A stretch of DNA of 32,000 bases from Candidatus Thorarchaeota archaeon (GCA_003345555.1 PRDJ01000006.1:12136-44135); one strand, 5' to 3'; counted from the first letter of the stretch, positions 13,847-31,586 are shown. Notes: generated by a model from the sequence alone, not told the origin. Program-made: numbers and translations.

Positions 13847-14173
13847 ATGCCTGATGACTTGCTGGAAGTAATGAGAAAGAGAATCATTGTCGGACTTGAG
13901 CGTGAAAAGACAAAGGAAGCCATACAGGGCTGGGAAAGGTCAGCATCGCTTACTCTGAAAGATGGCCGCCAATTCAACTTTCTCGTCAAGAACAACAACA
14001 TAACAGTGAACGAAGGTGCCATTGATAATCCGGACATGAGGATTGAGAGCGACGCCGATACGATACGCAAGCTCTTCATGGAAGAGATGAGCGCTGCAGC
14101 GGCCCTCCTTACCCGCAAACTGAAAGTAAAAGGATCCGCGAGCGACCTGATGAAAATTCGCCATATCTTCTAG
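13847..14173 (+). CDS. SCP2 sterol/lipid-binding domain protein
   Basis: EGAIDNPDMRIESDADT...AALLTRKLKVKGSASDLMK matches the SCP2 C-terminal pattern. Confidence 0.8.
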   Translation: MPDDLLEVMRKRIIVGLEREKTKEAIQGWERSASLTLKDGRQFNFLVKNNNITVNEGAIDNPDMRIESDADTIRKLFMEEMSAAAALLTRKLKVKGSASDLMKIRHIF

Positions 14174-14198
14174 ACCGAATTCTGAGGAGGTCTTCGAA

Positions 14199-15605
14199 AC
14201 GGACCAGAGGATTGTCAAGCAGCTAGCCGAGATTGTCAGTAGCGAATACGTTTCGACTCGCAAAGATGTTCTGCTTACGTACTCGGCATCAGCATCCACC
14301 GGTTATGATTCAGTGACGCCGGGTGCCGTCGTCCGTCCTGCTAGTACCGAAGAAGTCTCTAGGATTCTGAGGTTCGCCAACGATGAAGCAATCACCGTCA
14401 TTCCCAGGGGTGGTGGTTCAAGTCTGCAGGGAGAGGTCATTCCGAAGGCTGACAGCATTGTTGTCGAGCTTATGCGACTTGACAGGATGGCCCTGCATGA
14501 GAACCTCAGGTCTGTCACTGTCGGAGCTGGGGTTACCTATGGAGTGCTTGACAAATTCCTTAAACCGAACGATTTGTGGGTTCCCATCTATCCCGAATCT
14601 TCCCTTGTCTGCACGGTGGCTGGAAATGTTGCTGTTAATGGTGCAGGTCCTGGTTCGAGCACCTACGGATCTATTGCAGAAATGGTGCTCGGACTGGAGG
14701 TCGTCCTTCCCAACGGAGAGATCATCCAGACCGGGTCAGAGGCGAATCCGAATGCTCCTGGTCCATTCATGAGGTACGCCTTCGGTCCTGATATCACCGG
14801 CTTGTTCATCGGTTCTTTAGGAAGTCTGGGAATCATAACCAAGGTCTCGCTGAAAGTATTCAAGCGAATGCATCATTTTGACTACAACACATATGGGTTT
14901 GATGACTCTTCCAAAGCAGAGCGGTTCCTGCTTGAACTTAGAAACAATGATGTCAACGCTCTGTTCGCCACGCTTTACGAGGGACGAATCCTGAACTTCT
15001 TCATGGATATGCTGGGGGATGAGTATGGCATACCTAAACACGAATGGCCCGCCTACACGGTTTCAGTGACTATTGGGCGAACGAGAGAGGACCAGCTCAT
15101 TAGCGATGCCGAGGAGGCGAAACGCATCTGTTCTGAACTGGGCGGTGAAGTCATTGGCGTACGTGAGCTTCCTCGGGGTGAATGGACAGACCGTATGTGG
15201 GTATTCGCTAGATCCTCATATGCACACGGGTGGCACTGGAGGATACTCTACCATCACCAGACTCCCATCAATTGGCATAAGTCCATCGACGAGATTTGGA
15301 AGGTCATGGATAAGTATGGGCTGTTGGGCCACACAGCAGGATTCTTGACCGACCATTCTTCGTACAACCTGTACCCCATGATTTTCTTCGATCCTGCTGA
15401 CAAAGAGGAAGAACAAAAGGCGCGAAGGGCACACGCAGAACTTGCCCTTCGTTTGTATGAGACGGGTGCAGTCCCCTTCAAGCTGGCACCATATTGGGTA
15501 GATGGCGTCAAGGACCTTGAACGATACATCGAGTTCGTCAAGTCCGTAAAGAGACTTCTCGACCCTAAGGGAATCATGAACCCGGGTGTGATGGCAGGGG
15601 TATGA
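14199..15605 (+). CDS. FAD-binding oxidoreductase (GlcD/VAO-PCMH family), paralogue of 4102-5484; probable ACG start
   Basis: RGGGSS, LEVVLPNGEII, GLFIGSLGSLGII and DPKGIMNPG. The frame stays open upstream of the track's GTG 14313 and encodes DQRIVKQLAEIVSSEYVSTRKDVLLTYS, which aligns with the paralogue's N-terminus. GAGGAGG at 14184-14190 is 8 nt before ACG 14199. The start coordinate is inferred. Confidence 0.85.
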   Translation, partial: TDQRIVKQLAEIVSSEYVSTRKDVLLTYSASASTGYDSVTPGAVVRPASTEEVSRILRFANDEAITVIPRGGGSSLQGEVIPKADSIVVELMRLDRMALHENLRSVTVGAGVTYGVLDKFLKPNDLWVPIYPESSLVCTVAGNVAVNGAGPGSSTYGSIAEMVLGLEVVLPNGEIIQTGSEANPNAPGPFMRYAFGPDITGLFIGSLGSLGIITKVSLKVFKRMHHFDYNTYGFDDSSKAERFLLELRNNDVNALFATLYEGRILNFFMDMLGDEYGIPKHEWPAYTVSVTIGRTREDQLISDAEEAKRICSELGGEVIGVRELPRGEWTDRMWVFARSSYAHGWHWRILYHHQTPINWHKSIDEIWKVMDKYGLLGHTAGFLTDHSSYNLYPMIFFDPADKEEEQKARRAHAELALRLYETGAVPFKLAPYWVDGVKDLERYIEFVKSVKRLLDPKGIMNPGVMAGV

Positions 15606-15606
15606 C

Positions 15607-16770
15607 ATGACTGGTGTGGACATTGAAGAACTAAGGGAGAACCTCCTGCAATGTCGCAGATGTGGTATATGCCGCAATGCAGTATACGAAGACGAAGGGT
15701 TCAACGGTGTCTGTCCTGTATGGAAGGCCTCGAGCGGCTTTGAGACCAGCTTCATGAGAGGCAAAGTCCAGGTTGCTCTTGCTCTTCTTGATGGTCAGCT
15801 GGAAAGGACCCCTGAGAATGCGGAGTCTCTCTACACCTGCACCCTTTGCGGGAACTGTTCTCAGATATGCGCCGCAGAGTTCAATGCGAAGGATTGCCTC
15901 GAGAAAGTGCGAGAGGTATTTGCGGATATTCCAAATGAGATCCGCGATTCTCTTGCCCGAGCGATTGCGCAGACGGGGAATCCCTATTCGGAGAAGCCCT
16001 CAGCTAAGCGAAGCTGGATCCGCCAGATGGGTTTCAAGGTACCGACTCGCGGCAAGACTCTATACTATGTCGGCTGTACTACAGGACTAAGATTGCCTGA
16101 CGTTGCCAAGTCGACAGCACGGATCTTGAAAGCCGGAGGAGTTGAATTTGCCGTCATGGAAAGTGAACCGTGCTGTGGGTCAGTGATGCTAAGGACCGGA
16201 CGAACAAAGGAAGCAAACGAAAACGCGCAAAGTGTTGCCCAGAGCATTACTGACAGTGGTGCGGAGAGAGTTGTTGTGTCTTGCGCCGGGTGTTTGAGAG
16301 CCTTGAGGAAAGACTACCCTGAAAGGTTTGGCATTGACCTGCCGCCTGTCCTGCACATAACGGAATATGCACAACAGCTAATTAACGAAGGGCGTCTCCG
16401 ACCAAAGGGTTACCCGAAAGTTACGAGAATTGCCTATCACGACCCGTGTCACATGGGGCGCGAACTCGGAATCTATGAAGCTCCAAGAGAAATCCTTCGG
16501 TCTATACCAGGCGTGGAGCTGGCCGAGATGGATCCTAGTCGAGAGGCAGCCATGTGCTGCGGAGCCGGTGGTGGTCTCAGGTCGTTTGCCCCTGATCTAT
16601 CAAGAAGAATAGCAGCAGACCGAGTCCGAACGGCAGAATCCGCCAGAGCTAGAATTTTGGCTAGTTCTTGCCCGTTCTGTGAGCACAACCTCGCCGCAGG
16701 AAGGGATCTGAGCGGGAGCAGCATTGATGTTGTCGATGTCGCAGTTCTGCTTGCCAGCAGTCTCCCATAA
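15607..16770 (+). CDS. Fe-S oxidoreductase subunit with 2x[4Fe-4S] and two CCG domains (GlcF/GlpC/HdrD-like)
   Basis: CRRCGIC..CP, CTLCGNCSQIC, YVGC, CCG, CAGC, YHDPC, CCGAGGG and CPFC. Confidence 0.9.
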   Translation: MTGVDIEELRENLLQCRRCGICRNAVYEDEGFNGVCPVWKASSGFETSFMRGKVQVALALLDGQLERTPENAESLYTCTLCGNCSQICAAEFNAKDCLEKVREVFADIPNEIRDSLARAIAQTGNPYSEKPSAKRSWIRQMGFKVPTRGKTLYYVGCTTGLRLPDVAKSTARILKAGGVEFAVMESEPCCGSVMLRTGRTKEANENAQSVAQSITDSGAERVVVSCAGCLRALRKDYPERFGIDLPPVLHITEYAQQLINEGRLRPKGYPKVTRIAYHDPCHMGRELGIYEAPREILRSIPGVELAEMDPSREAAMCCGAGGGLRSFAPDLSRRIAADRVRTAESARARILASSCPFCEHNLAAGRDLSGSSIDVVDVAVLLASSLP

Positions 16771-16831
16771 CGCCGAACGGGTGCATAGCTTCTCCTTGGT
16801 CGAGCACTGGACAGCCAACTATTCTATATCC

Positions 16832-16845
16832 ATAAAACTTTAAAG
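16832..16845 (+). promoter_or_regulatory. Candidate BRE/TATA upstream of the Ino1-like gene
   Basis: ATAAAACTTTAAAG about 50 nt before ATG 16896. Confidence 0.4.
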
Positions 16846-16895
16846 GAAAGCCCTCTGCCCAAAGCAGAATGTCATTTGAGCCAGAGGTATAGCCA

Positions 16896-17963
16896 ATGGA
16901 TGGAATCAAGGTGGCCCTATTCGGCATAGGTAACTGCGCCAGTGCGCTGGTTCAAGGGGTTCAGTACTACAAAGATGCCAAGAACAATGGAGGTATCGTA
17001 GGTCTGAGCCACCCTGACTTCGCCGGTTACCACGTTAGGGATATCAAGTTCGTTGCGGCGTTCGACGTTACCGACCGAAAGGTGGGTGCCGATCTTGCAG
17101 GTGCAATATTCGCTGAACCGAACAACGTAATCCACTTCGCCGAGGTACCGAAGACTGGAGTCAAGGTCCTAAGAGGGCCTCTGCTTGATGGTGTTGATGA
17201 TAACCTCAGAACTCTCGTCAGGATTTCTCCTGCTCCAGAAGTTGATGTTGTAAAGGCTTTGAAGAACTCCGGTGCAGAAATAGGAATAAGCCTGTTACCG
17301 GGCTCCGCTCAGCAGGCCACCAGTTTCTATGCCAACGCTTGTCTGGAGGCCGGTTGTGCATTCATCAACGGCACCCCTGTGTCTATTGCATCGGACCCTG
17401 AGTGGGGCAAGAAGTTCAAGGAAAGAAAGCTCCCACTAGTGGGAGACGACATCCAGGATCAGATGGGGTCGACTGTACTTCATCGTAGCATACTACAGCT
17501 GCTAGTAGCTCGAGGAGTTCACGTGGACAAAAGCTATCAGCTGGACGTTGGTGGAGGTGCAGAATCACTCGATTCTCACTATCGTGGCCGTATGAGAAAG
17601 CGTGAGGTAAAGACTGCCGCGATTAGTCAGGACCTTCCGTACGAAGCACCGATGGTCGCCGGGTCATCAGACTACGTCAATTTTCTGAACAATGGTCGAG
17701 AGTCATACTTCTACATCACTGGGAAGCAGTTCGGAGGAGCCCCCATTACCATTGACATCCGCATGGAGGTAACAGACGGCCCCAATGCAGGTCAGGTACT
17801 GATGGATGCTATACGAGGTTCAAAGCTAGCACTGACGAGGGAAATCGGCGGTTCTCTTGAGTCAATATCTGCTTATGGATTCAAGAAGCCTCCAGTACCC
17901 ACAACAATGCACCAAGCCGAACGCTGGGTTGAGGAGTTCCTACTTGGGAAGAAGCGGCTCTGA
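16896..17963 (+). CDS. myo-inositol-1-phosphate synthase (Ino1/MIPS) family protein, divergent in catalytic-domain motifs
   Basis: GIGNCASALVQG, YHVRDIKFVAAFDV and IASDPEW match the short archaeal/actinobacterial MIPS; the C-terminal motifs deviate (see findings). Confidence 0.85.
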   Translation: MDGIKVALFGIGNCASALVQGVQYYKDAKNNGGIVGLSHPDFAGYHVRDIKFVAAFDVTDRKVGADLAGAIFAEPNNVIHFAEVPKTGVKVLRGPLLDGVDDNLRTLVRISPAPEVDVVKALKNSGAEIGISLLPGSAQQATSFYANACLEAGCAFINGTPVSIASDPEWGKKFKERKLPLVGDDIQDQMGSTVLHRSILQLLVARGVHVDKSYQLDVGGGAESLDSHYRGRMRKREVKTAAISQDLPYEAPMVAGSSDYVNFLNNGRESYFYITGKQFGGAPITIDIRMEVTDGPNAGQVLMDAIRGSKLALTREIGGSLESISAYGFKKPPVPTTMHQAERWVEEFLLGKKRL

Positions 17964-18365
17964 TTCGGAAAGCCAATGGTTTCCGATATAGTTGTCAATG
18001 AGCTTTCTTAGTTCATTCAATTCACTGACGACTCGGAACTCAGTCTCCTTCCCTACTTCCTCGAAGATTTCATTGTAATGTATCAGAGTATCGTACTCCT
18101 TTCTCAATGTTTCCTTTGCCTGAGCTGTCGTGGCTGACGGATCAAAAAGGACAATGAGACTCTCTGGCTCGAAATTCACCACCAGAGCGCGATCGACATA
18201 TGTGACCTTCTTGCACTGTGGACACACTGCTCGGTTCAACTTCCCCGACTTGACTTGGGGTGCCATCTTTCCGTCTTCTGCCAGGTCAATGTGCTCAATG
18301 ATCACCGCTTCGAAGATCTTCTGGCACTTTTCGCACTTTATCTCAATCAGCGTGGTCCCGGGCAT
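17940..18365 (-). CDS. CpXC-domain (zinc-ribbon-like) protein
   Basis: IKCEKCQKIFE...GKLNRAVCPQCKK pattern; GGTGAG precedes ATG 18365. Confidence 0.75.
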   Translation of the reverse strand: MPGTTLIEIKCEKCQKIFEAVIIEHIDLAEDGKMAPQVKSGKLNRAVCPQCKKVTYVDRALVVNFEPESLIVLFDPSATTAQAKETLRKEYDTLIHYNEIFEEVGKETEFRVVSELNELRKLIDNYIGNHWLSESEPLLPK

Positions 18366-18407
18366 TTAGCTCACCAGAGTCTAGTGGCCTATCACTTCTA
18401 TTGTCAC

Positions 18408-18995
18408 TTAAGAATTATGACTGTCCCCTGACTTGTCTTCCTTGCTGTCGTATCTTCTTTTCAGGAGGAAGCCCATTATGAGAGCTGTGAGTACAAGGGA
18501 CGCTAGGATTACCGGCGCACCCTCAAGAAGACCGCCGGCAACGTACCCAATTAATGCCCCAGCCGAGGTGACTGTGACTTTGCCTGCGAAATAAGTGAGA
18601 ATAAACTTGACAATGCTATACCTTGTGAGTGCTGTGTAGACAACGACTGGGTCGTCTGGGAAAGGTGATGCAGCAGCAAGGAACAATGCGAGCCCGCCCC
18701 ATTTTTCTGCTCGTGCTTTCTCCAGATCCACTGATTTCAGCAGTCTCTCAGACATTGCTTTTCGAGAGAACCGCACGATTCCATAGTGTACTGTCTTTGC
18801 TAGGGTTGCTGCCACCGCAACGATGACCCCAATTGCCAACCACACCATCGAAGGCATCAATACTGCTGCAACCCCAGCAAGAACCATGTTGCTTGGGCTG
18901 AGGAATGGAATCATGTTGATTATGAAACAGGCCAAGAGGAGTCCAAGGTACCCCTGAAGTATCAGCTGTGTTATTATCTGGAAGAAATCCTGCAT
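18408..18995 (-). CDS. DedA/VTT (SNARE-associated) family membrane protein
   Basis: Several transmembrane helices, IPFLSP and AASPFPDDPVV...RYSIVKFILTYFAGK motifs. Confidence 0.75.
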   Translation of the reverse strand: MQDFFQIITQLILQGYLGLLLACFIINMIPFLSPSNMVLAGVAAVLMPSMVWLAIGVIVAVAATLAKTVHYGIVRFSRKAMSERLLKSVDLEKARAEKWGGLALFLAAASPFPDDPVVVYTALTRYSIVKFILTYFAGKVTVTSAGALIGYVAGGLLEGAPVILASLVLTALIMGFLLKRRYDSKEDKSGDSHNS

Positions 18996-19099
18996 TTTGC
19001 TCTCGCTCAGGCACTCTTTTCGGGCATGGTCGAGCCAGAGGTAATGGACTCGTTCAAGTATACGGACACAATCGTCTATGCTGCATGTGACTGGAGTGA

Positions 19100-19519
19100 C
19101 TACGACGGGACTTTCTCTATGACGACGTTCTTCACGCCCTCGAGGCCCTTAAGGGAGCTACGCAGTTCGTCGAGCCCAATTGAGAGCTGCTTCGGCGAGA
19201 AGTAACACTCATAGAAGCACTTCGTTCCTCGGAGGCAGACGCCAGTTGAGTACAAGAGGTCCACTAGCCCTGACTTCTTGAATATCTGCGATAGCTTTGT
19301 CAGAAAGTCATTGGTTAGCTTTCCGATTTCAAGTGAAAGAAAGCTCACCTCATCCGTTTCCAGAGGATAGATTCTGATCAATCGGTCCTTGTGTGCCAGA
19401 ACCATTAGTCCCTTGCTCGTACCTAAAGCTGTCTTGAATGCCTTGGGGAATCGAACAGTGTCGCTTTCGTCAAAAACCAGTACCCGGCCGGATGTGGCGC
19501 CTTCGTAAGTGCTTGGCAT
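19100..19519 (-). CDS. AbrB/SpoVT-like N-terminal domain + ACT-like C-terminal domain, putative regulator
   Basis: DESDTVRFPKAFKTALG...IRIYP resembles an AbrB repeat, and the C-terminus ending LKGLEGVKNVVIEKV is ACT-like. ATG 19519 follows GGTGA; the track's TTG at 19576 is an alternative. Confidence 0.55.
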   Translation of the reverse strand: MPSTYEGATSGRVLVFDESDTVRFPKAFKTALGTSKGLMVLAHKDRLIRIYPLETDEVSFLSLEIGKLTNDFLTKLSQIFKKSGLVDLLYSTGVCLRGTKCFYECYFSPKQLSIGLDELRSSLKGLEGVKNVVIEKVPS

Positions 19520-19585
19520 CTTATCACCCGTATCAGTGCCCGTGACATGGCGGATGTAATTGTCTAAACCTACCAACTATGTTAG

Positions 19586-19602
19586 TCCAATATAAACAAA
19601 GC
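19586..19602. promoter_or_regulatory. Candidate divergent TATA element between the AbrB-ACT gene and the split Cas4 locus
   Basis: CCAATATAAACAAAG, sharing the AATATAAAC core seen at 2471. Confidence 0.45.
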
Positions 19603-19694
19603 GCCACTGGACTCACGTCTAGGCCTCAATAACAGCCCGAGTATGGTGCCCCTTTTCAGAGTTCGCGCCGAACGACAAAACAGGAGTTGATTGT

Positions 19695-19985
19695 CTGTCC
19701 GCTCCAGAATCATCCCGAGCCGAGCACGAATGGCGAGACGTTACACAACTCAGAATCCAATTCCTCTGTGAGTATCGCCTCCACCTGGAACAAATGCATG
19801 GTGAGATTCAGACGAAAGCCGCTTCAGTTGGATCTTGGTTACATGAGACGGACGACAGAATGCCCAGAGGGCGTCTCGGACTTCGCTTTGTTCTTGCCTT
19901 TCTGCTTATTGTATTGGCTCTCGTTGCACTGATTATGTTCTTGAGGTGGTGGCAATGGTGGCTATCGATCTGCTCGCTACTCTGA
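19695..19985 (+). CDS. Small protein: Cas4-like N-terminal segment plus C-terminal transmembrane helix; probable CTG start
   Basis: The frame of the track's 19794 ORF is open from 19623 and reads ...WRDVTQLRIQFLCEYRLHLEQMHGEIQTKAASVGSWLHE...RFVLAFLLIVLALVALIMFLRW. This matches the Cas4 N-terminal C...G..xH motif followed by a TM helix. AGGAG at 19682-19686 is 8 nt before CTG 19695. Confidence 0.7.
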   Translation: MSAPESSRAEHEWRDVTQLRIQFLCEYRLHLEQMHGEIQTKAASVGSWLHETDDRMPRGRLGLRFVLAFLLIVLALVALIMFLRWWQWWLSICSLL

Positions 19986-20626
19986 TTCTCCTGCTTCTTA
20001 CTGCCGGAGCATCTATCTTGCTGCTCTCGTCTTCAGACAGACGACTTCCGAGATCGTGCACACGAATTCTCAGAGAATCTGCGATTGTTCAGGAGCGCAT
20101 CGACGACTTTCTCAGAAACGGAGCTAGAGAAGGATGTACTGACAAACATTACTTGCTGAGAGAACAGATGGTCTACTGTCCGAGTCACAGCTTCAAGGGC
20201 CGATTCGACCAAGCCATTTTCCGTTTTGATGAGACGCCCACCCTTGAGCTGCTGATTGAAAGGAAGTTTCCGACGCGGCACTTGCTAAAGAAGGGTAGAC
20301 CTGAGGATTTCTTTCAGGCCGCACTCTACTCACTGGCATTGGCTAGCAAAGGTGTCAATTGTGAACCCACTCTCCTTCTAATCATATACTGCAAGCAGAG
20401 AGATGCCTCTGACTGTGCAAGAAGGCTGATTCCGTCAGAATGTGCGGCCTGCAGGAAAGGCCGTACGTTCTCCAGAAGGTACAATCCAAGAGAAGTGCTA
20501 AAGGCACTGCGGAGGCTTGATGAGATATGGTATGAGGGCCGATCGCCTCGTGCATCTCCCGCGGCAGATAAGTGCGCCGGATGTCCCCATGGAAAGGCGG
20601 GACATTGCGAATATTCGGCCGCCTAG
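19955..20626 (+). CDS. Cas4/RecB-like PD-(D/E)xK nuclease core with N-terminal transmembrane helix (solo, non-CRISPR)
   Basis: Hydrophobic N-terminus, KGRFD (motif II), IERK (motif III), FQAALY (QxxxY) and C-terminal KCAGCPHGKAGHC. GAGGTG at 19943-19948 precedes ATG 19955. Confidence 0.82.
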   Translation: MVAIDLLATLILLLLTAGASILLLSSSDRRLPRSCTRILRESAIVQERIDDFLRNGAREGCTDKHYLLREQMVYCPSHSFKGRFDQAIFRFDETPTLELLIERKFPTRHLLKKGRPEDFFQAALYSLALASKGVNCEPTLLLIIYCKQRDASDCARRLIPSECAACRKGRTFSRRYNPREVLKALRRLDEIWYEGRSPRASPAADKCAGCPHGKAGHCEYSAA

Positions 20627-20663
20627 CAAAAGAGTCATCTTGGTGAGTTGTGTCAGCGAGACT

Positions 20664-21092
20664 ATGCATGAACTAGCAGGCTTCCTTACACGTGTTATCG
20701 AATCAAAGAGGCGGCTGAAGGAGGTCTACTACACGACTAGGGACGAGGATACAAAGGCAGATGTGAAGGAGCTCGTGGCAGCTACAATATCTGCTCAGAA
20801 GGCTGCCGAGACTCTCCTTAGCGAGTGTGGCAAGGCTCGGCTGGCACGGAAGGCCCTTGAGGACCGAAAGGCGGAACTGGTCCTGAGGATGTGGTCGACC
20901 GGCCTGCCTGAACGAGTAACCGATTACGCGTCCAGACAGAGGAAGCTTGAGCAGCAATACGTGCACAAGTACCAACAATCTCTCATGGAGTACATTCAGG
21001 ATCTTGTGAGAGAAATGACAAGCTGGCTGGACGACATCAAGACGTTGAGTAGTCTTCCGAGAGTCCCACGAGAACAGAAAGCAAAGCAATGA
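20664..21092 (+). CDS. Hypothetical all-helical protein (about 142 aa)
   Basis: Long charged helical ORF 37 nt after the Cas4-like gene. The track's upstream extension overlaps the Cas4-like gene, so the start is uncertain. Confidence 0.65.
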   Translation: MHELAGFLTRVIESKRRLKEVYYTTRDEDTKADVKELVAATISAQKAAETLLSECGKARLARKALEDRKAELVLRMWSTGLPERVTDYASRQRKLEQQYVHKYQQSLMEYIQDLVREMTSWLDDIKTLSSLPRVPREQKAKQ

Positions 21093-22178
21093 CTACCAGC
21101 GTAGCGTGGCCGCCATTCCGCCCAACCCACGGAGCTGTGCTCCTGATTCCGTCTGACTTGAAAAGACCATCAGTTCAGTTCCGAAGTTGGAGACTTCCTG
21201 CATGAGATTATCTGTTAAGTCTGGGCTATCTTCGAGTATCAACAGCTTCTGTACCCGACCCGCTTTGAGGGCTTCTAGGACTTCATTCTTCCCGTAGGTG
21301 ATTGTTGACGAGCCTTTCATCAGGTTTTCAAGAAAGCTGTCCCAAGCCTGCCGTTCCGCGTAGATTTCCGTCTCTCTCAGGATTCTTGAAGCTTCTTTCA
21401 TGGCTTCGTACAATCCAAGCTCATCGATCTGGCTCACCGAGATTACGGTCTCTGCAACCTTCTGTCTAAGACGGTAGTCTAGTTCGCCTTTTTCTAGGAA
21501 CTCCTGAGCCCTAATGGTGTTGCCACCGACGACGATGGCGTCAATGTTTGTGATATTCGGCAGAAGAAGCTCATTCAATAGGCGACCCACATGTTTGAAG
21601 AAATCAAGCATCAATCCATCTCGGATATGTTCGTATCTTCTTGCACTTTGCCCGCCTGCCCTTGTTTTCCCGATGATATAGTAGTCCTCATCTCGTACGA
21701 GCTCCATATGCTTGCCGCGCAAGTATCCGATGGTGACCTTTCCTCCTTCAATAAGCACAATGACAATGAGGCTCTTCGGCTGGGTCATTGCCAGGAGCTC
21801 ATCGACCACAAACTCTCGACCACATATGTAGACGAACTGTGTGAGGGGGGCCGGAGGCACAAGGATCTCTCTGATTTCGTGAGCCGTTCCTCCTCCCTCG
21901 GCTTCTTGGATTCCATAGAAGAAGGCAATACCGTTTGGCGGAACTGAGAACTGACGCTTTGTTAGCTCACTGAGAATGGCCGTCAGATTGTCAGCAACAT
22001 TCCTCCTGTTGACTCTGCTCTTGATGTTCTCACATCCAGCAAGCTCTGCCCTCACGAAGCTAATAACATCTGCAAGGGCCTTGGTTGGAGGAATCGTAAG
22101 AGTTGTGAATGAGCTCTGCCTTCCCTTGTATGCCTTCAGTTCTGCGAGTTTACGTTTCAGTTGGTACCGGTCAACCAT
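21093..22178 (-). CDS. prf1: Archaeal peptide chain release factor aRF1 (eRF1 family), divergent
   Basis: NIKS, YICGREF and AGGQSARRY motifs plus a C-terminal L7Ae-like domain ending GGMAATLRW. MVDRYQL at ATG 22178 is the likely start. Confidence 0.9.
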   Translation of the reverse strand: MVDRYQLKRKLAELKAYKGRQSSFTTLTIPPTKALADVISFVRAELAGCENIKSRVNRRNVADNLTAILSELTKRQFSVPPNGIAFFYGIQEAEGGGTAHEIREILVPPAPLTQFVYICGREFVVDELLAMTQPKSLIVIVLIEGGKVTIGYLRGKHMELVRDEDYYIIGKTRAGGQSARRYEHIRDGLMLDFFKHVGRLLNELLLPNITNIDAIVVGGNTIRAQEFLEKGELDYRLRQKVAETVISVSQIDELGLYEAMKEASRILRETEIYAERQAWDSFLENLMKGSSTITYGKNEVLEALKAGRVQKLLILEDSPDLTDNLMQEVSNFGTELMVFSSQTESGAQLRGLGGMAATLRW

Positions 22179-22565
22179 CAATAGACATCCACTTCCTGCC
22201 TTGTCGGATGGCAGAACCACGAAGAACAAGGAGGCGCATCCAAGTGCTCATAGAGAGGTCGCGGGGGCACTCTATTTTAACGTTATGCCACTGACTTACG
22301 CGATGTACCGTGGAGATTGGTCTGCATGGTCTGAATAGGGGAGCAGATGCCGAATACATCTTGAAGATAGTTCCAGTGTTTTGGTCCCGAGCATGATAAG
22401 GTTAAAAAAGGGCCTGTCACACTCCCCAAATCAAGGGTGCGAAAGGAATGTGGCCCTGCCAATTTACAGCGGTCTCATAGGATACTTGTTCTCAGCTGGG
22501 AATAGGCTTGGTAGGGTTTACTACTCGCACTACTGGCGAAAGGAGCCTGGGGTTCTGGTTCACAT

Positions 22566-24074: not shown

Positions 24075-24079
24075 ACGCA

Positions 24080-25729
24080 GTGATAGTCGAATGCAGATTG
24101 GACAACTTGCTCCAGCTGATTGGTCAGAAGCTGACACCCCAGAAACTTGAGGACACACTGTTCCTTCTGAAAGTCGAAATAGAGAAACTCGAAGGCAACA
24201 TCATAGAAGTCGAGGTCAATCCTGACAGACAGGATATGCTCTCAGCCGAAGGAATCGCAAGAGCAATCAGAGCATTCCTAGGCATTGACACTCGTCTGAA
24301 GACATATTCTGTTAGAAAGTCTGGAAAGCAAGTCGTTGTCAAATCAGGTCTCGAAAGAATCAGACCATTCATTTCCTGTGGCATTGTCAAGGGCGTTCAA
24401 ATGAGTGACGATCTGCTGAAGGACTATATGCATCTTCAAGAGCTACTTACAACGACTCACGGAAGAAATCGGAAGAAAGCCAGCATCGGGCTTTACGTAT
24501 TGAATGACATAGAGTTCCCGATTCTATACGTCCCCGAGAGACCAGATTCAATCAAGTTTGCCCCCTTGGGTCAAGAATCTGCAATCGACGGTCCGACTAT
24601 CCTCAATACACACGAGAAGGGGCTGCTTTATGGTCCCATCATCTCCGGCTTCAAGAAATGGCCCCTGCTGAAGGACTCAAGGGGCTGCATACTGAGCCTT
24701 CCACCTGTAATCAACAGCAACGACTTGGGACGTATCACAGTGGACGTTCATGACTTATTCGTGGAAGTCACGGGGACCCAGAAATCGTGTGTGGATCAAG
24801 CGCTCAACATTGTTCTCACGTCGCTCGCTGATAGGGGCGGCAAAATCGAATCCGTGACAGTCGTCTACCCCGACGGGACAGAGACTGAAACACCTGATTT
24901 GACGCCCAGTAAAATGATACTGACAACTGATGAGGTCGTACAGTTAACAGGGTTGGTGCTCAAAGACCAAGATGTTGTTGATTGCCTCAAGAAGATGTGC
25001 TATGGAGCTAGAGTATTAAGCAAGGGAAAAGTTGCAGTCGGAATCCCTCCGTTTAGGACGGATATACTCCATCCTGTCGATGTGATGGAAGACGTAGCCA
25101 TCGGCTATGGTTTTGACAAGATACAACCCACCATGCCTGTCACCACAACAACTGGTCGGCTCCTTCCGAAAACTCGATTCAAGAACAAGGCTCGCGATTT
25201 GATGGTGGGATCTGGTTATCAGGAGGTAATGACTTACGTGATGAGTTCACCCGACGTCATGAACTCCAAGATGATGCGAGACAACCAGCTTGTTACGACA
25301 GGCAATCCAAAGAGTATCGATTACTCGGTTCTTCGCAATTCTCTCCTCCCCGCTCTCCTTGACTTCACGAGTCAGAACCAGCATGCTGACTGCCCCCAGA
25401 GAGTATTCGAAGTGGGCGACGTGGTGATTCCTGACGAAAGGTCGGAAACTCAATCTACGCAAAGGACTTCGGTGTGCGGACTGGTGTCAGACGGTCGTGT
25501 CAACATCACGAACGTAATTGCAGAACTCACATTTGTGCTAAGGAATCTGGGCCTCGATGGCAAGTTCAAGTTTGTCTCAGCAAGGAACCCCTCGTTTGTA
25601 GAGGGACGAAGTGCTGACATTCTACTCGGTCAGGCGCGAATTGGCTCGTTCGGCGAGGTGTCACCAGAGGTGCTTAGTCGGTTCGGGATAGGAAACCCAA
25701 CAGCGGCTTTCGAGTTCTCGCTGCCCTGA
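24080..25729 (+). CDS. pheT: Phenylalanine--tRNA ligase beta subunit (archaeal type)
   Basis: NPDRQDMLSAEG, THGRNRKKASIG, LSLPPVINS, RTDILHPVDVMEDVAIGYG and LRNSLLP. GTG 24080 follows GAGGTG; GTG 24071 is an alternative. Confidence 0.95.
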   Translation: MIVECRLDNLLQLIGQKLTPQKLEDTLFLLKVEIEKLEGNIIEVEVNPDRQDMLSAEGIARAIRAFLGIDTRLKTYSVRKSGKQVVVKSGLERIRPFISCGIVKGVQMSDDLLKDYMHLQELLTTTHGRNRKKASIGLYVLNDIEFPILYVPERPDSIKFAPLGQESAIDGPTILNTHEKGLLYGPIISGFKKWPLLKDSRGCILSLPPVINSNDLGRITVDVHDLFVEVTGTQKSCVDQALNIVLTSLADRGGKIESVTVVYPDGTETETPDLTPSKMILTTDEVVQLTGLVLKDQDVVDCLKKMCYGARVLSKGKVAVGIPPFRTDILHPVDVMEDVAIGYGFDKIQPTMPVTTTTGRLLPKTRFKNKARDLMVGSGYQEVMTYVMSSPDVMNSKMMRDNQLVTTGNPKSIDYSVLRNSLLPALLDFTSQNQHADCPQRVFEVGDVVIPDERSETQSTQRTSVCGLVSDGRVNITNVIAELTFVLRNLGLDGKFKFVSARNPSFVEGRSADILLGQARIGSFGEVSPEVLSRFGIGNPTAAFEFSLP

Positions 25730-25811
25730 TGCCGTACCACGATGGGCGGGTTGATCCGTTATCGCAATACCTACGGATGATAGTGGTGGTAGCAAGACCT
25801 TCTGACCGGAG

Positions 25812-25823
25812 AAAAGATATAAG
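25812..25823 (+). promoter_or_regulatory. Candidate BRE/TATA for the first small GTPase
   Basis: AAAAGATATAAG about 60 nt upstream of ATG 25884. Confidence 0.45.
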
Positions 25824-25883
25824 GCCACAGGCGAGCGGTGTTCGTCACACTAGAATGCTAGATGAACTAGGAGTAGATGCCGA

Positions 25884-26486
25884 ATGACCGAGAAAGCGGG
25901 GTGGACTGGAAGAGAGAGTGCTACAGACGACTCCTCTTTCGAAGGTCACAAGTTCAGAATCGTCCTTCTGGGCGAGGCATCCGTAGGCAAGTCATCGCTG
26001 CTCCGTCGATTCACCGAGAACAATTTCGATGATGAGTACAAGCAGACAATAGGCAGTACTTTCGCAACCAAGGACGTGAAGGTGATCGACAACTCCGGAG
26101 TTTCTAGGCCTGTGCGTCTTGTCATCTGGGATATGGGCGGGCAGTCGACTTATAGAGAACTGAGAAGACAGTTCATGAAAGGTTCTGCGGGAGCTGTTAT
26201 CGTGTACGACGTGACGCGCCCCGAAACATTCATGGCAATGAACACATGGTTTGAATCATTCCGTGAAGTCTGTTCTGATGCACCTGTCGTGATATGCGCG
26301 AACAAGATAGACCTGGAGTCCAAGAGGATGGTTCCTCCGCAGCCTGGACTAATGCTCAAGAACTGGTTCCAATCTGACTATTTCGAGACATCCGCAAAAG
26401 TGGGTACTGCAGTCTCAGATGTCTTCACACGGATGGCGCAGATTGTATTGGCAAAGGTGATTTCAGAACATTCACCAAGAATATGA
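25884..26486 (+). CDS. Rab-like small GTPase (Ras superfamily)
   Basis: G1 GEASVGKS, G2 TIG, G3 WDMGGQ, IVYDVT, G4 NKID and G5 ETSAK; no C-terminal cysteine. Confidence 0.93.
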   Translation: MTEKAGWTGRESATDDSSFEGHKFRIVLLGEASVGKSSLLRRFTENNFDDEYKQTIGSTFATKDVKVIDNSGVSRPVRLVIWDMGGQSTYRELRRQFMKGSAGAVIVYDVTRPETFMAMNTWFESFREVCSDAPVVICANKIDLESKRMVPPQPGLMLKNWFQSDYFETSAKVGTAVSDVFTRMAQIVLAKVISEHSPRI

Positions 26487-26524
26487 GTCGTGCTTCATGA
26501 TAATCACTCGCGAGAGGCATTAGG

Positions 26525-26929
26525 ATGCGCGTCAAAGAATTCATGACCTCTGTGATTGTCACTGCAGACGCAGCCACCCCTGTCGTTGAAGCTGCAAAGA
26601 TAATGGCAGTTGAAGATGTAGGGAGTGTGATTGTCACTAAGAACGATGTCTTGGTGGGTCTAGTCACTCAGAAAGACATCATCGCAGCGCAATTGATGTC
26701 CGAGGGTGTATACCATCGCCTGACATTGGAAGACATAATGAGCAGTCCTGTCGTGACGATTAGTCCTGACGCCGACCTTGGACAAGCAATAGCGTTGATG
26801 CATCAAACCGGAAAGAGGCACATACCCGTAATCGAAGGTGACGACATTATTGGAATTGTCACCTCAACCGATGTCTTGCGGGTGGTGGCTACTCTGAAGC
26901 TGTTTGCCAAGGGCGTTCCTACTGCCTAG
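26525..26929 (+). CDS. CBS-domain pair protein
   Basis: VKEFMTS.VIV...DVGSVIV...LVGLVTQKDI and EDIMSSPVVTISPDA...HIPVIE...GIVTSTDV. Confidence 0.92.
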   Translation: MRVKEFMTSVIVTADAATPVVEAAKIMAVEDVGSVIVTKNDVLVGLVTQKDIIAAQLMSEGVYHRLTLEDIMSSPVVTISPDADLGQAIALMHQTGKRHIPVIEGDDIIGIVTSTDVLRVVATLKLFAKGVPTA

Positions 26930-27570
26930 GCCGGCTGGTATTTCGCAATTTCGGCTTTGATTTCCTGCTTGAGTTTGAGTATGTCCTTGGCCTGAAGTTC
27001 GTTTCTCTTCGGATATCCTGCGACCATTCCAATCCATCGATCAATCTTGACCATTATGGGGTCACTAGGTACAATCTTCATGATATCAGTCTTCGAGTCA
27101 GCCAGCGTCTGGGCAACATCGCCAGCGAGGCAACCCATCTTGAGGGACTTGATAATGCTTTGGAGGATATCTGCCACCTGCATGGCCCTGTCCGCAGGCA
27201 CTTTGCTGGCTGCGGGTGAAGCACCAACAGTCGCAACGGCGGGTTCTGCCTCGTACACCGGAGCGCCGACCTGTATGTTTTGAATGGACTGGGCAACCTC
27301 GTCCCTGAGTCGCTCTATTGCCTCCGTTAACGAGCTTTCAAGTCGCTTGAACTCTTCTCTGACGACGCTACTCGTTTCGTCAGTTGCTGCGGGAGCACGG
27401 GTCTGGGCTTGTTTGCTCAGGGCGTCGAGTATCTCCTGCTTGGTTACTTTTAGTTCTGACTTTATCTCTGTCACTGACGTGAGGATTGTGATCATGCGTT
27501 TTAGGGTTTCACCCAGTGTGGCAATACTTGCTTCAATCTGTGACAATCGACTTAGGAACTGCTCAGCCAT
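26926..27570 (-). CDS. Hypothetical protein: N-terminal coiled coil, Ala/Pro-rich linker, C-terminal helical domain
   Basis: 214-aa ORF with heptad-like N-terminal half and linker GAPVYEAEPAVATVGASPAASK. Confidence 0.8.
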   Translation of the reverse strand: MAEQFLSRLSQIEASIATLGETLKRMITILTSVTEIKSELKVTKQEILDALSKQAQTRAPAATDETSSVVREEFKRLESSLTEAIERLRDEVAQSIQNIQVGAPVYEAEPAVATVGASPAASKVPADRAMQVADILQSIIKSLKMGCLAGDVAQTLADSKTDIMKIVPSDPIMVKIDRWIGMVAGYPKRNELQAKDILKLKQEIKAEIAKYQPA

Positions 27571-27743
27571 ATGCGCTCATCACTGTACCTGAATGACACC
27601 ATGGGATGATATTCTGAAGAAAAGGATTTGTCCGACAGTTAGGGGATAAGTCCCAGATATACCAATATGGTTTTTCTAGAACCGTTAAATGGCGTTCTGC
27701 CGTAGGTGTGACCACCTAGCATACGCTATAGGAAGTATAGAAC

Positions 27744-28352
27744 TTGTCTTCTGAGCCTGTTTCCCACATGTTCAAACTCGTTGCCCTAGGTGACGGTGCC
27801 GTGGGAAAGACTAGTTGTATCAAGAGATACACAGAAGACAGTTTCAGCGAGCGCTACATAGCAACCATCGGCACCACTTTCGCGCTGAAAAGCGTGGAAG
27901 TACAGGGACCTAACGGGTCTAAGATTAGCGCAAGAATAGTGCTTTGGGACCTTGCCGGCCAGCCTACCTATAACGAGTTGAGACGTAGGTACATGGCCGG
28001 TGCGTCGATGGCTGTTATCGTCTACGATGTGACAAGGCCGCAGACATTCTTAGACGTCGGTGAATGGTTTACCAAGTTCATTACAGTCTGCCCCAATGCA
28101 GTAGTTGCTGTTGTTGCGAACAAAATCGATAGGCCAGACCGACTTGTGCCGCCCGAAGCTGGGCTAATGGTTAAGAGGTGGCTTGATGTCTTGCACTATG
28201 AGACATCAGCCAAGACCGGCGAGAACATCAACAGGATGTTCACGGATTTGGTGATGCGCTCCATGGAAAAGCAGCGCGAACTGGGACCGGCCAGTTCCAT
28301 CGATTCCGCGCAATCTAGTATTCACGCAACAAGACCGCCCAAGACGACCTAG
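27744..28352 (+). CDS. Rab-like small GTPase (Ras superfamily), paralogue of 25884-26486
   Basis: G1 GDGAVGKT, TIG, WDLAGQ, IVYDVT, NKID and ETSAK; Ser/Pro/Thr-rich tail without cysteine. TTG start 8 nt after GGAAG. Confidence 0.93.
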   Translation: MSSEPVSHMFKLVALGDGAVGKTSCIKRYTEDSFSERYIATIGTTFALKSVEVQGPNGSKISARIVLWDLAGQPTYNELRRRYMAGASMAVIVYDVTRPQTFLDVGEWFTKFITVCPNAVVAVVANKIDRPDRLVPPEAGLMVKRWLDVLHYETSAKTGENINRMFTDLVMRSMEKQRELGPASSIDSAQSSIHATRPPKTT

Positions 28353-28372
28353 CTCTCTGGCAGGTGTAAGTG

Positions 28373-28918
28373 ATGACAGCAACGGCCAAACATACTCAGT
28401 ATGTCAAAGGCGTCTTTAGTCACATTGGCTTGTTCTTTGTGAACTTTTGCGTATTAATTGGTCTAATCCAAGCCATCAACGTCTACCAGATGCCACAACC
28501 GTTGTTGAACACGATTCTTCTAGCGTACATGATCGTTCATACAATCATGCTGCTGTCACTTCAGCTCGGAATCCAAGTGCTTGAGCTCATTAGACTCAAG
28601 ATGCCATCATTCCTCATTAGCTACTACTTCCGTTTCAGTGATGAGGAGCTCATTCCTCTCCGAATCTTGGATCCTACTAAAAGCAAGCTAGCTGTAATCG
28701 TCCTGCTGCTTGTTATTACCGGGGGGCCTGTGCTCTATCCCATATTTGCAGTCTATGGCTTCGTGTTCATCTCTGGAGACCTGTTGATAATTGCATTCGA
28801 CCCGAATACGATACTGCATTATTTTACGGTGTTTCTGAACTGGATGCCACCCGTAATTGCTCTCATAGTCATCGTCACCATTGTGTCCGTTGTGATTGTT
28901 GAATTCAAACATGTCTAG
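28373..28918 (+). CDS. Hypothetical integral membrane protein (about 4 TM helices)
   Basis: Long hydrophobic stretches; AGGTG precedes ATG 28373. Confidence 0.75.
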   Translation: MTATAKHTQYVKGVFSHIGLFFVNFCVLIGLIQAINVYQMPQPLLNTILLAYMIVHTIMLLSLQLGIQVLELIRLKMPSFLISYYFRFSDEELIPLRILDPTKSKLAVIVLLLVITGGPVLYPIFAVYGFVFISGDLLIIAFDPNTILHYFTVFLNWMPPVIALIVIVTIVSVVIVEFKHV

Positions 28919-29043
28919 AAGACGCAATCTGGAAATGTCGCCTAAGGCCCGGAACCAGTCAGTTCTGGCACCGTCTCAGACAAACAAAGTCTTCTGTCCC
29001 TAGGTCGGGGTTTATATTGCGACTGTATTCTACTCATCCAACA

Positions 29044-30399
29044 ATGAACTCGACCGTTGATGTTGCAGTAGTTGGTGCCGGGTCCGCGGGATGTTCTGCT
29101 GCTCGCCGATGCGCGGAGATGGGTCTCGAGACCATTATGCTCGACAGAAAGCCAAGACAACTCGTCGGGCAGAAGGTTTGTGGTGATGAGGTAAGTAGGT
29201 CACACTTCGATGCCACCGGGATTGATTACCCGCAAGAAGCAGAGATACTAAACACAATCCATGGTGCTGACATATACCCGCCAGGAATAACCAACGAAAT
29301 GAAGGTCAGGGGTTGGAAGGAATTCGATGGCTGGATCCTGCATCGGCTGAACTTTGGCCAGCGGCTACTCAATGAAGCGATTCGGGCCGGAGTGACTTTC
29401 CTTCCGGAGTGTCATGTGACCGGTCCTACACTCAAAGATGGACAAGTTGTCGGTGTGAAATACAAGGCCAAGGAAACGGGCGAGACAAGAGCAGTCCAGG
29501 CGAAACTTGTGGTCGATGCATCTGGTCTTGCCGGAGTGGTCAGGACGAAGGTTGATCACCCGCTCGTCGAGAAGCAAGTCGACAAGAATGACATTGCCCT
29601 TTGTCAACGTGAGATTCTGCATCTCAGAGAGCCGCTTCCTGAGCCGAATGTCGCTCGAGTATTCCTAGGAAGAAGAATCGCGCCCTCAGGTTATGCTTGG
29701 CTTTTCCCACGGGGACCAGAAGAAGTGAATGTGGGGGTCGGGGTAACCGGCGGGGAAGGCAAATCCTCTCCCAAGTCGTATCTTTCGAGCTTCAAAGAGC
29801 GCTATGAGGTTCTTCGTGGAAGTGATGTGATCGAGAGTGCTGGTGGTGCAGTGCCGGTCCGGCGTCCACTAATGAGCTTGGTTGCTGACGGCATTGCCTT
29901 TGTTGGTGATTCGGCGCTCCAAGTGAATCCCATTCACGGCGGAGGAATAGGAGCAGGCATGCGTGCGGGAGTGATTCTTGGGGAAATCGCCAAGCAGGCG
30001 ATAGCGAGAGAGGACACATCAGCAAGAGGACTGTGGCAATACAACACAGCCTATCTGAGAGACTTCGGAAAGCGTCTTGCATCACTTGAAATCTTTCGCA
30101 GATTCCTTCAGGATGTAGGCGATGAAGACATCGATTTCGGCTTTGAGAAGCGCGTCTTGGAACCAGAGGATCTTATGCGTGCCAACCGGGGCGATGGCCT
30201 GTCTCTTGGTCTGGTCGACAAACTGCGTAGAGTGGGAAGGTCTGTGGGGCGGCCTGGTCTATTAATCAAACTTCAGAGGGCGGCAAGCCTCATGAAGATG
30301 GTCAGCAAGGCGTATGCCCAATACCCGTCTCGGCCTGAGATGTTCCAAAAATGGTGCCTCGACGTGGCGTCTATATTGGATGAAGCTCACTTCACGTGA
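29044..30399 (+). CDS. Geranylgeranyl reductase family protein (digeranylgeranylglycerophospholipid reductase-like)
   Basis: VVGAGSAG, KVCGD, VVDASG, GYAWLFP (YxWxFP) and GDSALQVNPIHGGGI. Confidence 0.9.
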   Translation: MNSTVDVAVVGAGSAGCSAARRCAEMGLETIMLDRKPRQLVGQKVCGDEVSRSHFDATGIDYPQEAEILNTIHGADIYPPGITNEMKVRGWKEFDGWILHRLNFGQRLLNEAIRAGVTFLPECHVTGPTLKDGQVVGVKYKAKETGETRAVQAKLVVDASGLAGVVRTKVDHPLVEKQVDKNDIALCQREILHLREPLPEPNVARVFLGRRIAPSGYAWLFPRGPEEVNVGVGVTGGEGKSSPKSYLSSFKERYEVLRGSDVIESAGGAVPVRRPLMSLVADGIAFVGDSALQVNPIHGGGIGAGMRAGVILGEIAKQAIAREDTSARGLWQYNTAYLRDFGKRLASLEIFRRFLQDVGDEDIDFGFEKRVLEPEDLMRANRGDGLSLGLVDKLRRVGRSVGRPGLLIKLQRAASLMKMVSKAYAQYPSRPEMFQKWCLDVASILDEAHFT

Positions 30400-30445
30400 C
30401 GTCTGGATGGCTGTGTCTTCAAGCGGTCAGCAAGTTCACGAGGCG

Positions 30446-31498
30446 CTATATGTCTCTGATACCATCTTTCACAACTGTGAAGATAGCTTCGCCTTCGGGC
30501 AGGTTTGGCGAATCAACTAGCCGGCAGATTCTTCGCTCACCCTTCGACTTCCTGATGTAACAGCGGACCTGTGGGACGTGCGCCAAGACGTGGCCACCTA
30601 CCGGGGTGGTTGGGTCTCCGAAGAAGGCATCTGGACGCGCCATTACCTGATTCGTGATGTACACTGCCATGTTGTTGATTTCTGCACCCCTCTGCAGATG
30701 GTGCAGGTGCTTGTTCAGTTTCTGTTGTCTCGGAGCGAGAGTGCCTCGTCCGGTGTATTCCGCTCTGAAGTGACTGGTTGCTGAATCTAGTACCAAGAGC
30801 TTTGCGTTCTTCTCTTGAGCCATTTCCATGGCTTGGTCACACAATAGTATTTGATGGTCAGAGTTGTAGGCCCGTGCCCACACTACGTTCTTCAGGACTG
30901 TCTCTATGTTTAGACCCAGAGCCTCTGACATGTCGACAAGACGTTCGGGTCTGAAAGTGCCTTCAGTGTCAACATAAATCGCAGTTCCGCCCAACCCTCC
31001 TTTGTCGGGAGGAAGTTGGACATTCACGGCGAGCTGGTGGGCGATTTGCGTTTTCCCGGACCTGAATGAACCATACATTTCAGTAATGCCTTGGGTCTCG
31101 ATACCTCCACCCAGCAAATCGTCAAGCGCTTTGGAACCGCTCGTAATTCGACCTGCGTTTCTTCTTCGTTCCAACAACAAGTCAGCAGTCTCGAATCCGA
31201 TGTCTAGCATCTCTCTTGCTGCTTTGATAATCTTCGTTGCGGTGGTCTCGCCTATTGAGCCTGCTGCGGCCAGCTCAGGAGGAGATGCGACAGCAATTGC
31301 TTCGACACTTCTATAACCTGATTCAGAGAGGCGCTTGGCAATCGCAGGACCAACCCCCGGAAGATCGGTCATGTCAAGACCTGTCACGCTTGTTCCAGTA
31401 TCTGGTGCCTCGCCGACGGCTTCCTTCGGTGCTTCGCCTTCGAATTCCTCGTAGTCTGGTTCCTCGACGTCCTCTTCTGGTTCCTCTTTCTTCGGGAT
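30446..31498 (-). CDS. radA: DNA repair and recombination protein RadA with acidic N-terminal extension; probable ATC start
   Basis: DLPGVG HhH domain, Walker [41 protein letters not shown] and [10 protein letters not shown]. The frame is open upstream of the track's GTG 31387 and encodes (M)[36 protein letters not shown], with GGAGG 8 nt before ATC 31498. The start coordinate is inferred. Confidence 0.95.
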
Positions 31499-31576
31499 TT
31501 TGGTCGCCTCCCTTGATTGCTCGGCTATCTCGTGCGAGTAAATGGAGAGTATGGTTATGATTCTGTCGCTTTGACC

Positions 31577-31586
31577 GATATAAAAA
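31577..31586 (-). promoter_or_regulatory. Candidate TATA box for radA
   Basis: TTTTTATATC on the minus strand, about 80 nt upstream of the proposed ATC start. Confidence 0.5.

Follow-up and report, generated by a model that had tools for sequence, protein, structure and literature searches.

Probable near-cognate start codons behind strong Shine-Dalgarno motifs in a Thorarchaeota genome and its relatives

Introduction

Where does translation begin when the conserved N-terminus of a protein lies upstream of every ATG, GTG and TTG of its reading frame? The question is raised by a stretch of 32,000 nucleotides from an uncultured Candidatus Thorarchaeota archaeon (GCA_003345555.1 PRDJ01000006.1:12136-44135), which is called the window below. 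Three of its genes, encoding a FAD-linked oxidase, a small membrane protein and RadA, appear to start at ACG 14199, CTG 19695 and ATC 31498, and each of these codons follows a strong Shine-Dalgarno (SD) motif. Archaea are usually described as starting only at AUG, GUG or UUG. From the sequence of the window, an initial annotation had suggested that three random errors at start codons are unlikely and that the lineage uses an SD-driven, relaxed choice of start codon. In what follows, near-cognate denotes a codon one base from ATG, and canonical denotes ATG, GTG or TTG. The comparisons reported here indicate that ACG, CTG, ATT, ATC and ATA very probably act as genuine near-cognate starts behind a strong SD, both in this genome and widely in its family.

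The window corresponds to bases 12136-44135 of contig C6 of a 2.28-Mb metagenome-assembled genome (MAG; G000), which consists of 82 contigs and is 93% complete. The relatives used for comparison were G001-G003 from the same genus, G004-G018 from the same family, and the remaining genomes up to G030 from other families of the phylum.

Results

Three near-cognate sites at canonical SD spacing

All three sites and their spacings were recovered as initially annotated, as were two canonical starts used there for comparison, ATG 5641 (8 nt after GAGG) and TTG 27744 (8 nt after GGAAG). The spacing of exactly 8 nt holds for the motifs as they had been cut. When the motifs are placed in a common GGAGG register, the CTG site reads GGAGt with a spacing of 7 nt, and the exactness of the value is therefore partly a matter of where the motif is taken to end. 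Canonical starts after GGAGG in G000 peak at a spacing of 7-8 nt, and all three sites, with a GGAGG-type motif at 7-8 nt, lie within this optimum.

At each of the three sites no canonical codon is present at or upstream of the conserved N-terminus, and a canonical codon is aligned in orthologues. Orthologues begin at the near-cognate position and not at the downstream canonical codons. The stretch following each codon carries the mark of coding sequence, seen as substitution bias in the oxidase and radA genes and as a conserved protein motif in the gene of the small membrane protein.

A probable, inherited isoleucine-codon start of radA

The features of the radA locus are as follows.

31507..31511, minus strand: SD motif GGAGG of radA (read directly)
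31496..31498, minus strand: proposed radA start codon ATC (comparison of 63 loci)
30446..31498, minus strand: radA coding sequence, 350 amino acids, with an acidic N-terminal extension followed by HhH and Rad51 domains (Pfam, relatives)
31578..31586, minus strand: A/T-rich TTTTTATAT, roughly 80 nt ahead of the ATC and possibly an archaeal TATA box (sequence read directly, function conjectural)

The GGAGG motif is separated from ATC 31498 by 8 nt. The first canonical codons in the frame are GTG 31387 and ATG 31375, both without SD. By its Pfam domains the product belongs to RadA/Rad51, with HHH_5 at residues 42-96 (2e-14) and Rad51 at residues 112-349 (5.5e-93). The RadA proteins of the family align with it from residue 2, which identifies the acidic extension (IPKKEE...DYEEFE) as a conserved part of thorarchaeal RadA. 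This extension (window 31376-31498, minus strand) precedes the HhH domain; in thorarchaeal RadA it comprises 27-48 residues, is very acidic and contains the motif D-Y-E-[ED]-F-[ED]. A function in DNA mimicry or in the docking of a partner would be pure conjecture. If TTTTTATAT is a real TATA box, radA possibly has its own leadered mRNA, independent of coupling to an upstream gene.

The start position was compared across 63 distinct radA loci, nearly all from Thorarchaeota. In 58 of them the start position follows a GGAGG motif at a distance of exactly 8 nt. The codon at this position was ATG in 22 loci, ATT in 18, TTG in 10, GTG in 4, ATC in 3 and ATA in 2, so that 23 loci carry ATT, ATC or ATA and 36 carry a canonical codon; in the four others automated reading gave a different codon, and no start was assigned. 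The proteins are alike after the start, with M, L, V or I followed by S-P-K-K. At four ATT/ATC loci (L027, L039, L110 and L111) the frame contains no canonical codon from the stop upstream as far as the HhH domain, and in L111 this stop lies one codon ahead of the ATT. Substitutions in the extension, counted over disjoint pairs of ATT/ATC/ATA loci, were distributed 5/5/34 over the three codon positions, a pattern that marks the extension as translated.

On the RadA tree the ATT/ATC/ATA state requires about 4 changes, as compared with a mean of 18.9 after shuffling. It fills whole multi-genus clades, including the genus studied here, and is also present in G019, the only genome of the sister family. 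Judged by this distribution in sequence, ATC 31498 is one case of an old, stably inherited isoleucine-codon start of radA. The radA gene of G030 was considered as a case of an ATT start outside the order and was not counted, as an in-frame ATG lies six codons upstream.

An ACG codon at the ancestral start of the FAD-linked oxidase

The features of the oxidase gene are as follows.

14184..14190, plus strand: SD motif GAGGAGG of the FAD-linked oxidase gene (read directly)
14199..14201, plus strand: proposed start codon ACG of the FAD-linked oxidase (orthologue alignment)
14199..15605, plus strand: coding sequence of the FAD-linked oxidase (GlcD / D-lactate dehydrogenase-like), 468 amino acids (Pfam, structure homologue)

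ACG 14199 follows GAGGAGG after 8 nt and lies 25 nt past the stop of the upstream open reading frame (ORF). An in-frame TGA is present at 14151, and the next ATG, GTG or TTG in the frame is GTG 14313, which is codon 39 and has no SD. ATA 14163 was examined as an alternative start and rejected, having neither an SD nor a counterpart in orthologues.

The position aligned with ACG 14199 is occupied by ATG, GTG or TTG in 17 of 17 orthologous or tandem-paralogous copies of the family, among them TTG in G003 (87% identity) and ATG in G001. All 17 copies align with the window protein from residue 2, and most have a GGAGG-type motif 7-8 nt upstream. Two of the family genomes carry tandem duplicates of the FAD-linked oxidase gene (loci L009 in G006:C39 and L014 in G013:C40), in which both copies have canonical starts and a GGAG-type motif.

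Counted from the ACG, the Pfam domain FAD_binding_4 begins at residue 41, two residues past GTG 14313, and FAD-oxidase_C lies at the C-terminus. Residues 3-221 could be aligned with the solved D-lactate dehydrogenase 8jdc, starting at its residue 16; the disputed segment before GTG 14313 is thus homologous to a solved enzyme. Over the 37 codons after the ACG, the comparison with G003 gave 3/5/13 substitutions at codon positions 1/2/3. From these alignments, ACG 14199 is placed exactly on the ancestral start codon of the oxidase and is a recent, species-specific change. It is young and at least tolerated, and it may be merely tolerated.

A probable CTG start of a small membrane protein

The features of the third gene are as follows.

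19682..19686, plus strand: SD motif AGGAG of the small membrane-protein gene (read directly)
19695..19697, plus strand: proposed start codon CTG (conservation in a sister species)
19695..19985, plus strand: small conserved protein, 96 amino acids, with a C-terminal transmembrane helix (family conservation)

Here 8 nt separate AGGAG from the CTG, and the earliest canonical codon in the frame is ATG 19794, which has no SD. TTG 19687, directly after AGGAG, was rejected as a start because, being out of frame, it could be used only with a frameshift; G003 retains the same layout. A Pfam search with the 96 amino acids gave no match. Homologues of the protein occur in 16 of the 18 other family genomes, and they share the motif R-x-V-[ST]-[DE]-L-R-x-Q-x-x-C-E-Y-R, which may bear a loose resemblance to the N-terminal cysteine motif of Cas4/RecB-type nucleases.

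In G003 the protein is only 53-60% identical to the window copy, and its gene has the identical AGGAG, a spacer of 8 nt with one base changed, CTG, and an in-frame TGA immediately upstream. In G001 and G002 the start is GTG, at most one codon from the CTG position, and in other genera it is ATG or TTG, 10-20 codons ahead of the conserved motif. In G000 this motif is encoded ahead of the first ATG (19794) and would be lost from a protein with a canonical start. Since the CTG is common to two separately assembled species and no other start retains the conserved part of the protein, a start at CTG is favoured.

Letter accuracy at the three codons

The letters of the window from 14000 to 31600 were checked against Logan contigs from four public wetland-metagenome runs of two studies (2018 and 2022). 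No differing letter was found at any of the three start codons. ACG 14199 was spanned by contigs of runs X2 and X5, CTG 19695 by a contig of run X1, and ATC 31496-31498 by contigs of runs X1 and X5. The ATC of radA is unchanged in strain variants that differ at 31502, a spacer position (runs X1 and X5), and at 31525.

Probable near-cognate starts across the genome

The whole 916-kb contig C3 of G003 was compared with G000. Shadow frames, together with upstream DNA whose conservation has other causes, dominated an unfiltered comparison of ORFs from stop to stop; filters for third-position substitution bias and SD position were therefore applied. After the third-position and overlap filters, 558 orthologous pairs with a median identity of 82% remained. 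The genome comparison without the SD filter contained many false columns and was used only for the enrichment of codon classes.

Among 214 aligned canonical starts of G000 and G003 there were 125 ATG, 47 GTG and 42 TTG, and a perfect GGAGG preceded only 12 of them. The columns with an SD in both genomes comprised 76 canonical/canonical pairs. Strong near-cognate starts were found in about 12 of the 558 orthologous genes (about 2%), and they were concentrated among genes with a perfect GGAGG. Their codons in G000 were ACG (five), CTG (three) and ATT or ATC (four); AAG, AGG or unrelated codons did not occur among the strong cases of the 558 pairs. The cases are listed below with the codon of G000 before that of G003. 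In those that are near-cognate in G000 only, the G003 codon is canonical and no canonical codon lies nearby.

Near-cognate in G000 only:
ACG/TTG, FAD-linked oxidase of the window
ACG/ATG, C39:51755
ACG/ATG, C52
ACG/ATG, C76, dsrH-like gene
CTG/TTG, C36:67692
Near-cognate in both genomes:
ATC/ATC, radA
ATT/ATC, C16
ATC/ATC, C60, another FAD-oxidase paralogue
ATC/ATT, eS25
CTG/CTG, C36:79364
ACG/ACG, C66:1896
CTG/CTG, small membrane protein of the window

Conversely, some positions with ATG in G000 are ACG starts in G003. An example from the window is the minus-strand gene at 7602-8072, which starts with ATG, while alignment places an ACG, 6 nt after GGTGA, at this position of the G003 orthologue.

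G000 was also scanned by itself, at GGAGG motifs that had a long open frame and no canonical start within reach. At spacings of 8-10 nt, CTG, ACG or ATH (ATT, ATC or ATA) made up 12 of 45 codons, compared with 7 of 168 at the control spacings (Fisher p = 3e-5). Taken with the aligned canonical starts at the ACG position, the clade-wise inheritance of the radA state and the 12 or so cases among 558 genes, this supports the proposal of an SD-driven, relaxed start choice. The ATC and the CTG are inherited, whereas ACG 14199 is recent and species-specific, and the rate over the genome is about 2% and not about 10% as in the window.

Further candidates with GGAGG, a spacing of 8-9 nt and ACG, CTG, ATT or ATC were noted in G000 at C41:16209, C68:22453, C68:32980, C10:78207 and C58:6869 (0-based). 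Their N-termini are plausible, for instance the nucleotidyltransferase-like VVFAGTFDHL and the oxidoreductase-like IVAGVGGQG.

Probable near-cognate starts of eS25 and aIF1

The gene of ribosomal protein eS25 in G000 (C39:58958-59764, locus L219:259-...) has an ATC 9-10 nt after AGGAG(A). Its N-terminus, x-S-[KR]-K-K-W-G-K, starts with ATC or ATT in 11 of 17 genomes of the family (Thorarchaeaceae), with ATG in two and with TTG in two; in G001 and G002 a GTG is present one codon upstream. A canonical start of eS25 would delete the KKKWGK motif. The ATC and ATT starts of eS25 indicate that an isoleucine-codon start is compatible with a ribosomal-protein gene.

Mismatched start codons are rejected by the initiation factor aIF1. 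In Pyrococcus, the aIF1 residues R31, Y32 and K34 contact the 30S subunit and the mRNA (PMC6237735). At the equivalent positions, loop 1 of thorarchaeal aIF1 reads RKWGR, as it does in other Asgard families. These three positions thus retain basic and aromatic residues, and no loss of the 30S/mRNA contacts was seen at them. The gene of the proofreading factor itself has a weak start. G000 has a single gene with a SUI1 domain (C57, about 100298-100600, locus L215), and its start, a CTG 8 nt after AGGAG, lies a few codons ahead of the zinc knuckle. Among the 17 family genomes the aIF1 start is CTG in nine (G000 and eight others, 8-10 nt after AGGAG), GTG in seven, ATT in one and ATG in none. In most of the other Asgard families searched, aIF1 starts at ATG.

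Other observations in the window

At 18304-18306, which falls close to the 5' end of an ORF on the minus strand (17940-18365), runs X2 and X5 differ from the window by three letters (ACC to TGA on the plus strand), a strain-level variant. An Rfam search of the window found no RNA family at gathering score.

Discussion

Alternative explanations

Standard ORF calling would start the three proteins at the next canonical codon (GTG 14313, ATG 19794, and GTG 31387 or ATG 31375), which would make the upstream frame a coding-like untranslated leader. At radA such a reading has a parallel, as the protein begun at ATG 31375 resembles the short RadA of distant relatives in the phylum, such as that of G025, whose start adjoins the HhH domain. 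However, these downstream codons lack an SD, and starts there would cost the oxidase 38 residues that all orthologues conserve and that have homologous counterparts in solved structures, and the small protein its only conserved motif. For radA, the third-position bias of the extension (5/5/34) and the several ATT/ATC loci without any canonical codon before the HhH domain point the same way, and we regard downstream initiation as very unlikely. An error of sequencing, assembly or binning, or a minority allele, at the start codons might be suspected in a MAG as fragmented as this one (82 contigs, 93% complete). Random errors would not hit solely one-base neighbours of ATG at SD-spaced positions, though, and the separately assembled Logan contigs of the 2018 and 2022 studies agree with the window, while strain variants close by leave the ATC intact. 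Other species, moreover, show the CTG and the ATC in MAGs that were assembled separately. Because relatives share near-cognate starts, they reflect biology and not error, as had been argued for the window at the outset, and a faulty sequence is the least probable of the explanations considered, to the point of being negligible.

Two further explanations accept the codons and concern the way in which they are read; both seem very improbable to us. If C-to-U editing of the transcript restored the start (ACG to AUG, CUG to UUG), a single change would make the ACG and the CTG canonical. ACG is indeed the commonest non-canonical start in this genome, and ACG starts of plant organelle genes are edited to AUG. 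Such editing cannot convert the ATT, ATC or ATA starts at radA, eS25, C16 and C60, however, so that it would account for only a part of the cases, and we know of no mRNA editing in archaea. The codons might instead be read by a second initiator-like tRNA, or by an elongator tRNA after termination and reinitiation, in which case Thr, Leu or Ile would be the first residue of the proteins. Coupling of this kind is possible at the ACG gene, which lies 25 nt past the preceding stop, and the tRNAs of the MAG were only partly recovered. Against this, separate transcripts appear to begin with radA and with the small-protein gene, as suggested by a divergent neighbour in one case and by an upstream A/T-rich box in the other. 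A pattern search of the MAG found no initiator-type anticodon stem with CGU, CAG or GAU, and nothing tRNA-like with any anticodon. The codon set, from which AAG and AGG are missing, also matches, as far as we are aware, what Met-tRNAi tolerates in other systems.

Several points tell against genuine near-cognate initiation as the explanation of all three sites. The evidence for initiation at these codons comes from DNA sequence, and none of the public runs listed as containing this DNA was an RNA run. The letter check was not fully independent, as the Logan runs perhaps mostly represent the source samples, although the assemblies are separate and the conservation across species does not rest on these runs. 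Being confined to one species, ACG 14199 could be a recent, mildly harmful start mutation instead of a selected feature. At radA, initiation at GTG 31387 or ATG 31375 could yield a shorter isoform in this organism, which is conceivable because both forms keep the HhH and ATPase domains intact. Finally, a search of the MAG found neither a 16S rRNA 3' end, which was also not found in C3 of G003, nor a recognisable initiator tRNA; Aragorn, run with and without intron search, returned 15-17 tRNAs and no initiator.

Proposed mechanism

Near-cognate initiation behind a strong SD could proceed as follows. The SD would pair with the 3' end of the 16S rRNA, for which the anti-SD sequence was assumed and not read from this genome, and a codon 7-8 nt downstream would be placed in the P site. 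There, Met-tRNAi would be accepted on a one-mismatch codon through two of three base pairs, and the outcome would be the full-length protein at lower efficiency. Such a mechanism fits the codon set and the need for a strong SD, as well as the reported finding that archaeal 30S complexes bind an AUU mRNA in the absence of aIF1 and reject AUU in its presence (review PMC4705826). Sulfolobus aIF1 likewise discriminates against AUU (PMC4705826). The near-cognate codons would accordingly be read by the initiator tRNA, with Met as first residue, and the weak start would tune expression, with an output that is reduced and possibly adjustable.

The weak starts of radA, eS25 and aIF1 are old and look maintained by selection. 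By analogy with infC or eIF1, it is plausible that the weak start of the aIF1 gene provides feedback on start-codon stringency. More tentatively, and with the balance of probability against it, Thorarchaeia, and perhaps Asgard archaea widely, may possess a tunable stringency circuit, in which aIF1, made from its own weak CUG or GUG start, would set the acceptance of near-cognate codons, and genes with ACG, CUG or AUH starts (radA, eS25, oxidases, membrane proteins) would rise and fall with aIF1 activity. If it exists, the circuit would mean that regulated stringency of the eIF1 kind, hitherto a trait of eukaryotes, predates their origin, and would combine it with positioning by SD.

Consequences for annotation and evolution

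As gene finders allow only ATG, GTG and TTG, the N-termini of about 2% of the genes in this lineage are cut or misplaced, and the systematic mis-annotation that was predicted from the window does occur. It affects RadA, which loses its acidic extension, eS25, which loses KKKWGK, aIF1 and several enzymes. Such N-termini in turn affect structure prediction, phylogenies and the heterologous expression of Asgard proteins. The retention of ATT, ATC or ATA starts of core genes by whole multi-genus clades indicates that an archaeon with eukaryote-type initiation factors can keep near-cognate initiation as a stable, selected state. With the gene of the proofreading factor on a weak start, the origin of eukaryote-like stringency control becomes testable in the closest archaeal relatives of eukaryotes.

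Comparison with known systems

In the literature covered, which was incomplete and comprised reviews of archaeal initiation and work on aIF1, no report of systematic ACG, CUG or AUH starts in Thorarchaeota or other Asgard archaea was found. NCBI translation table 11 lists ATT, ATC, ATA and CTG as alternative starts and does not contain ACG. The ATC and CTG starts described here are thus already listed for prokaryotes; the use of ACG is not, and a lineage-wide archaeal habit differs from rare bacterial exceptions. The ACG of the oxidase resembles the ACG starts of plant organelle genes in standing at a conserved AUG start position, and the two differ in that editing cannot account for the ATT, ATC and ATA starts found here.

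The closest bacterial parallel considered is infC, the gene of IF3, which has an AUU start with translational autoregulation (PMC4705826). Both systems have a weak near-cognate start that is evolutionarily conserved and lies behind a ribosome-binding site, and in both the fidelity factor's own gene is weakly started, here by the CTG or GUG of aIF1. In contrast to infC, the factor is aIF1, a homologue of eIF1 unrelated to IF3, for which feedback is suggested by analogy, and a weak start is found in numerous genes unrelated to one another (radA, eS25, oxidases, membrane proteins), about 2% as against one or two genes.

In eukaryotes, near-cognate initiation at CUG, ACG, AUU and other codons is policed by eIF1 (PMC4705826, PMC6412873). 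The codon set is the same, the proofreading factor is homologous, and the lineage studied here is the closest archaeal relative of eukaryotes. The start is selected differently, by SD pairing at a fixed distance of 7-8 nt instead of scanning and Kozak context, and here the main protein has no start other than the near-cognate codon, in contrast to an alternative isoform or an upstream ORF. Near-cognate starts behind an SD are already known as a kind; what distinguishes those of the Thorarchaeota is their frequency, their age, their presence in core genes and the lineage in which they occur.

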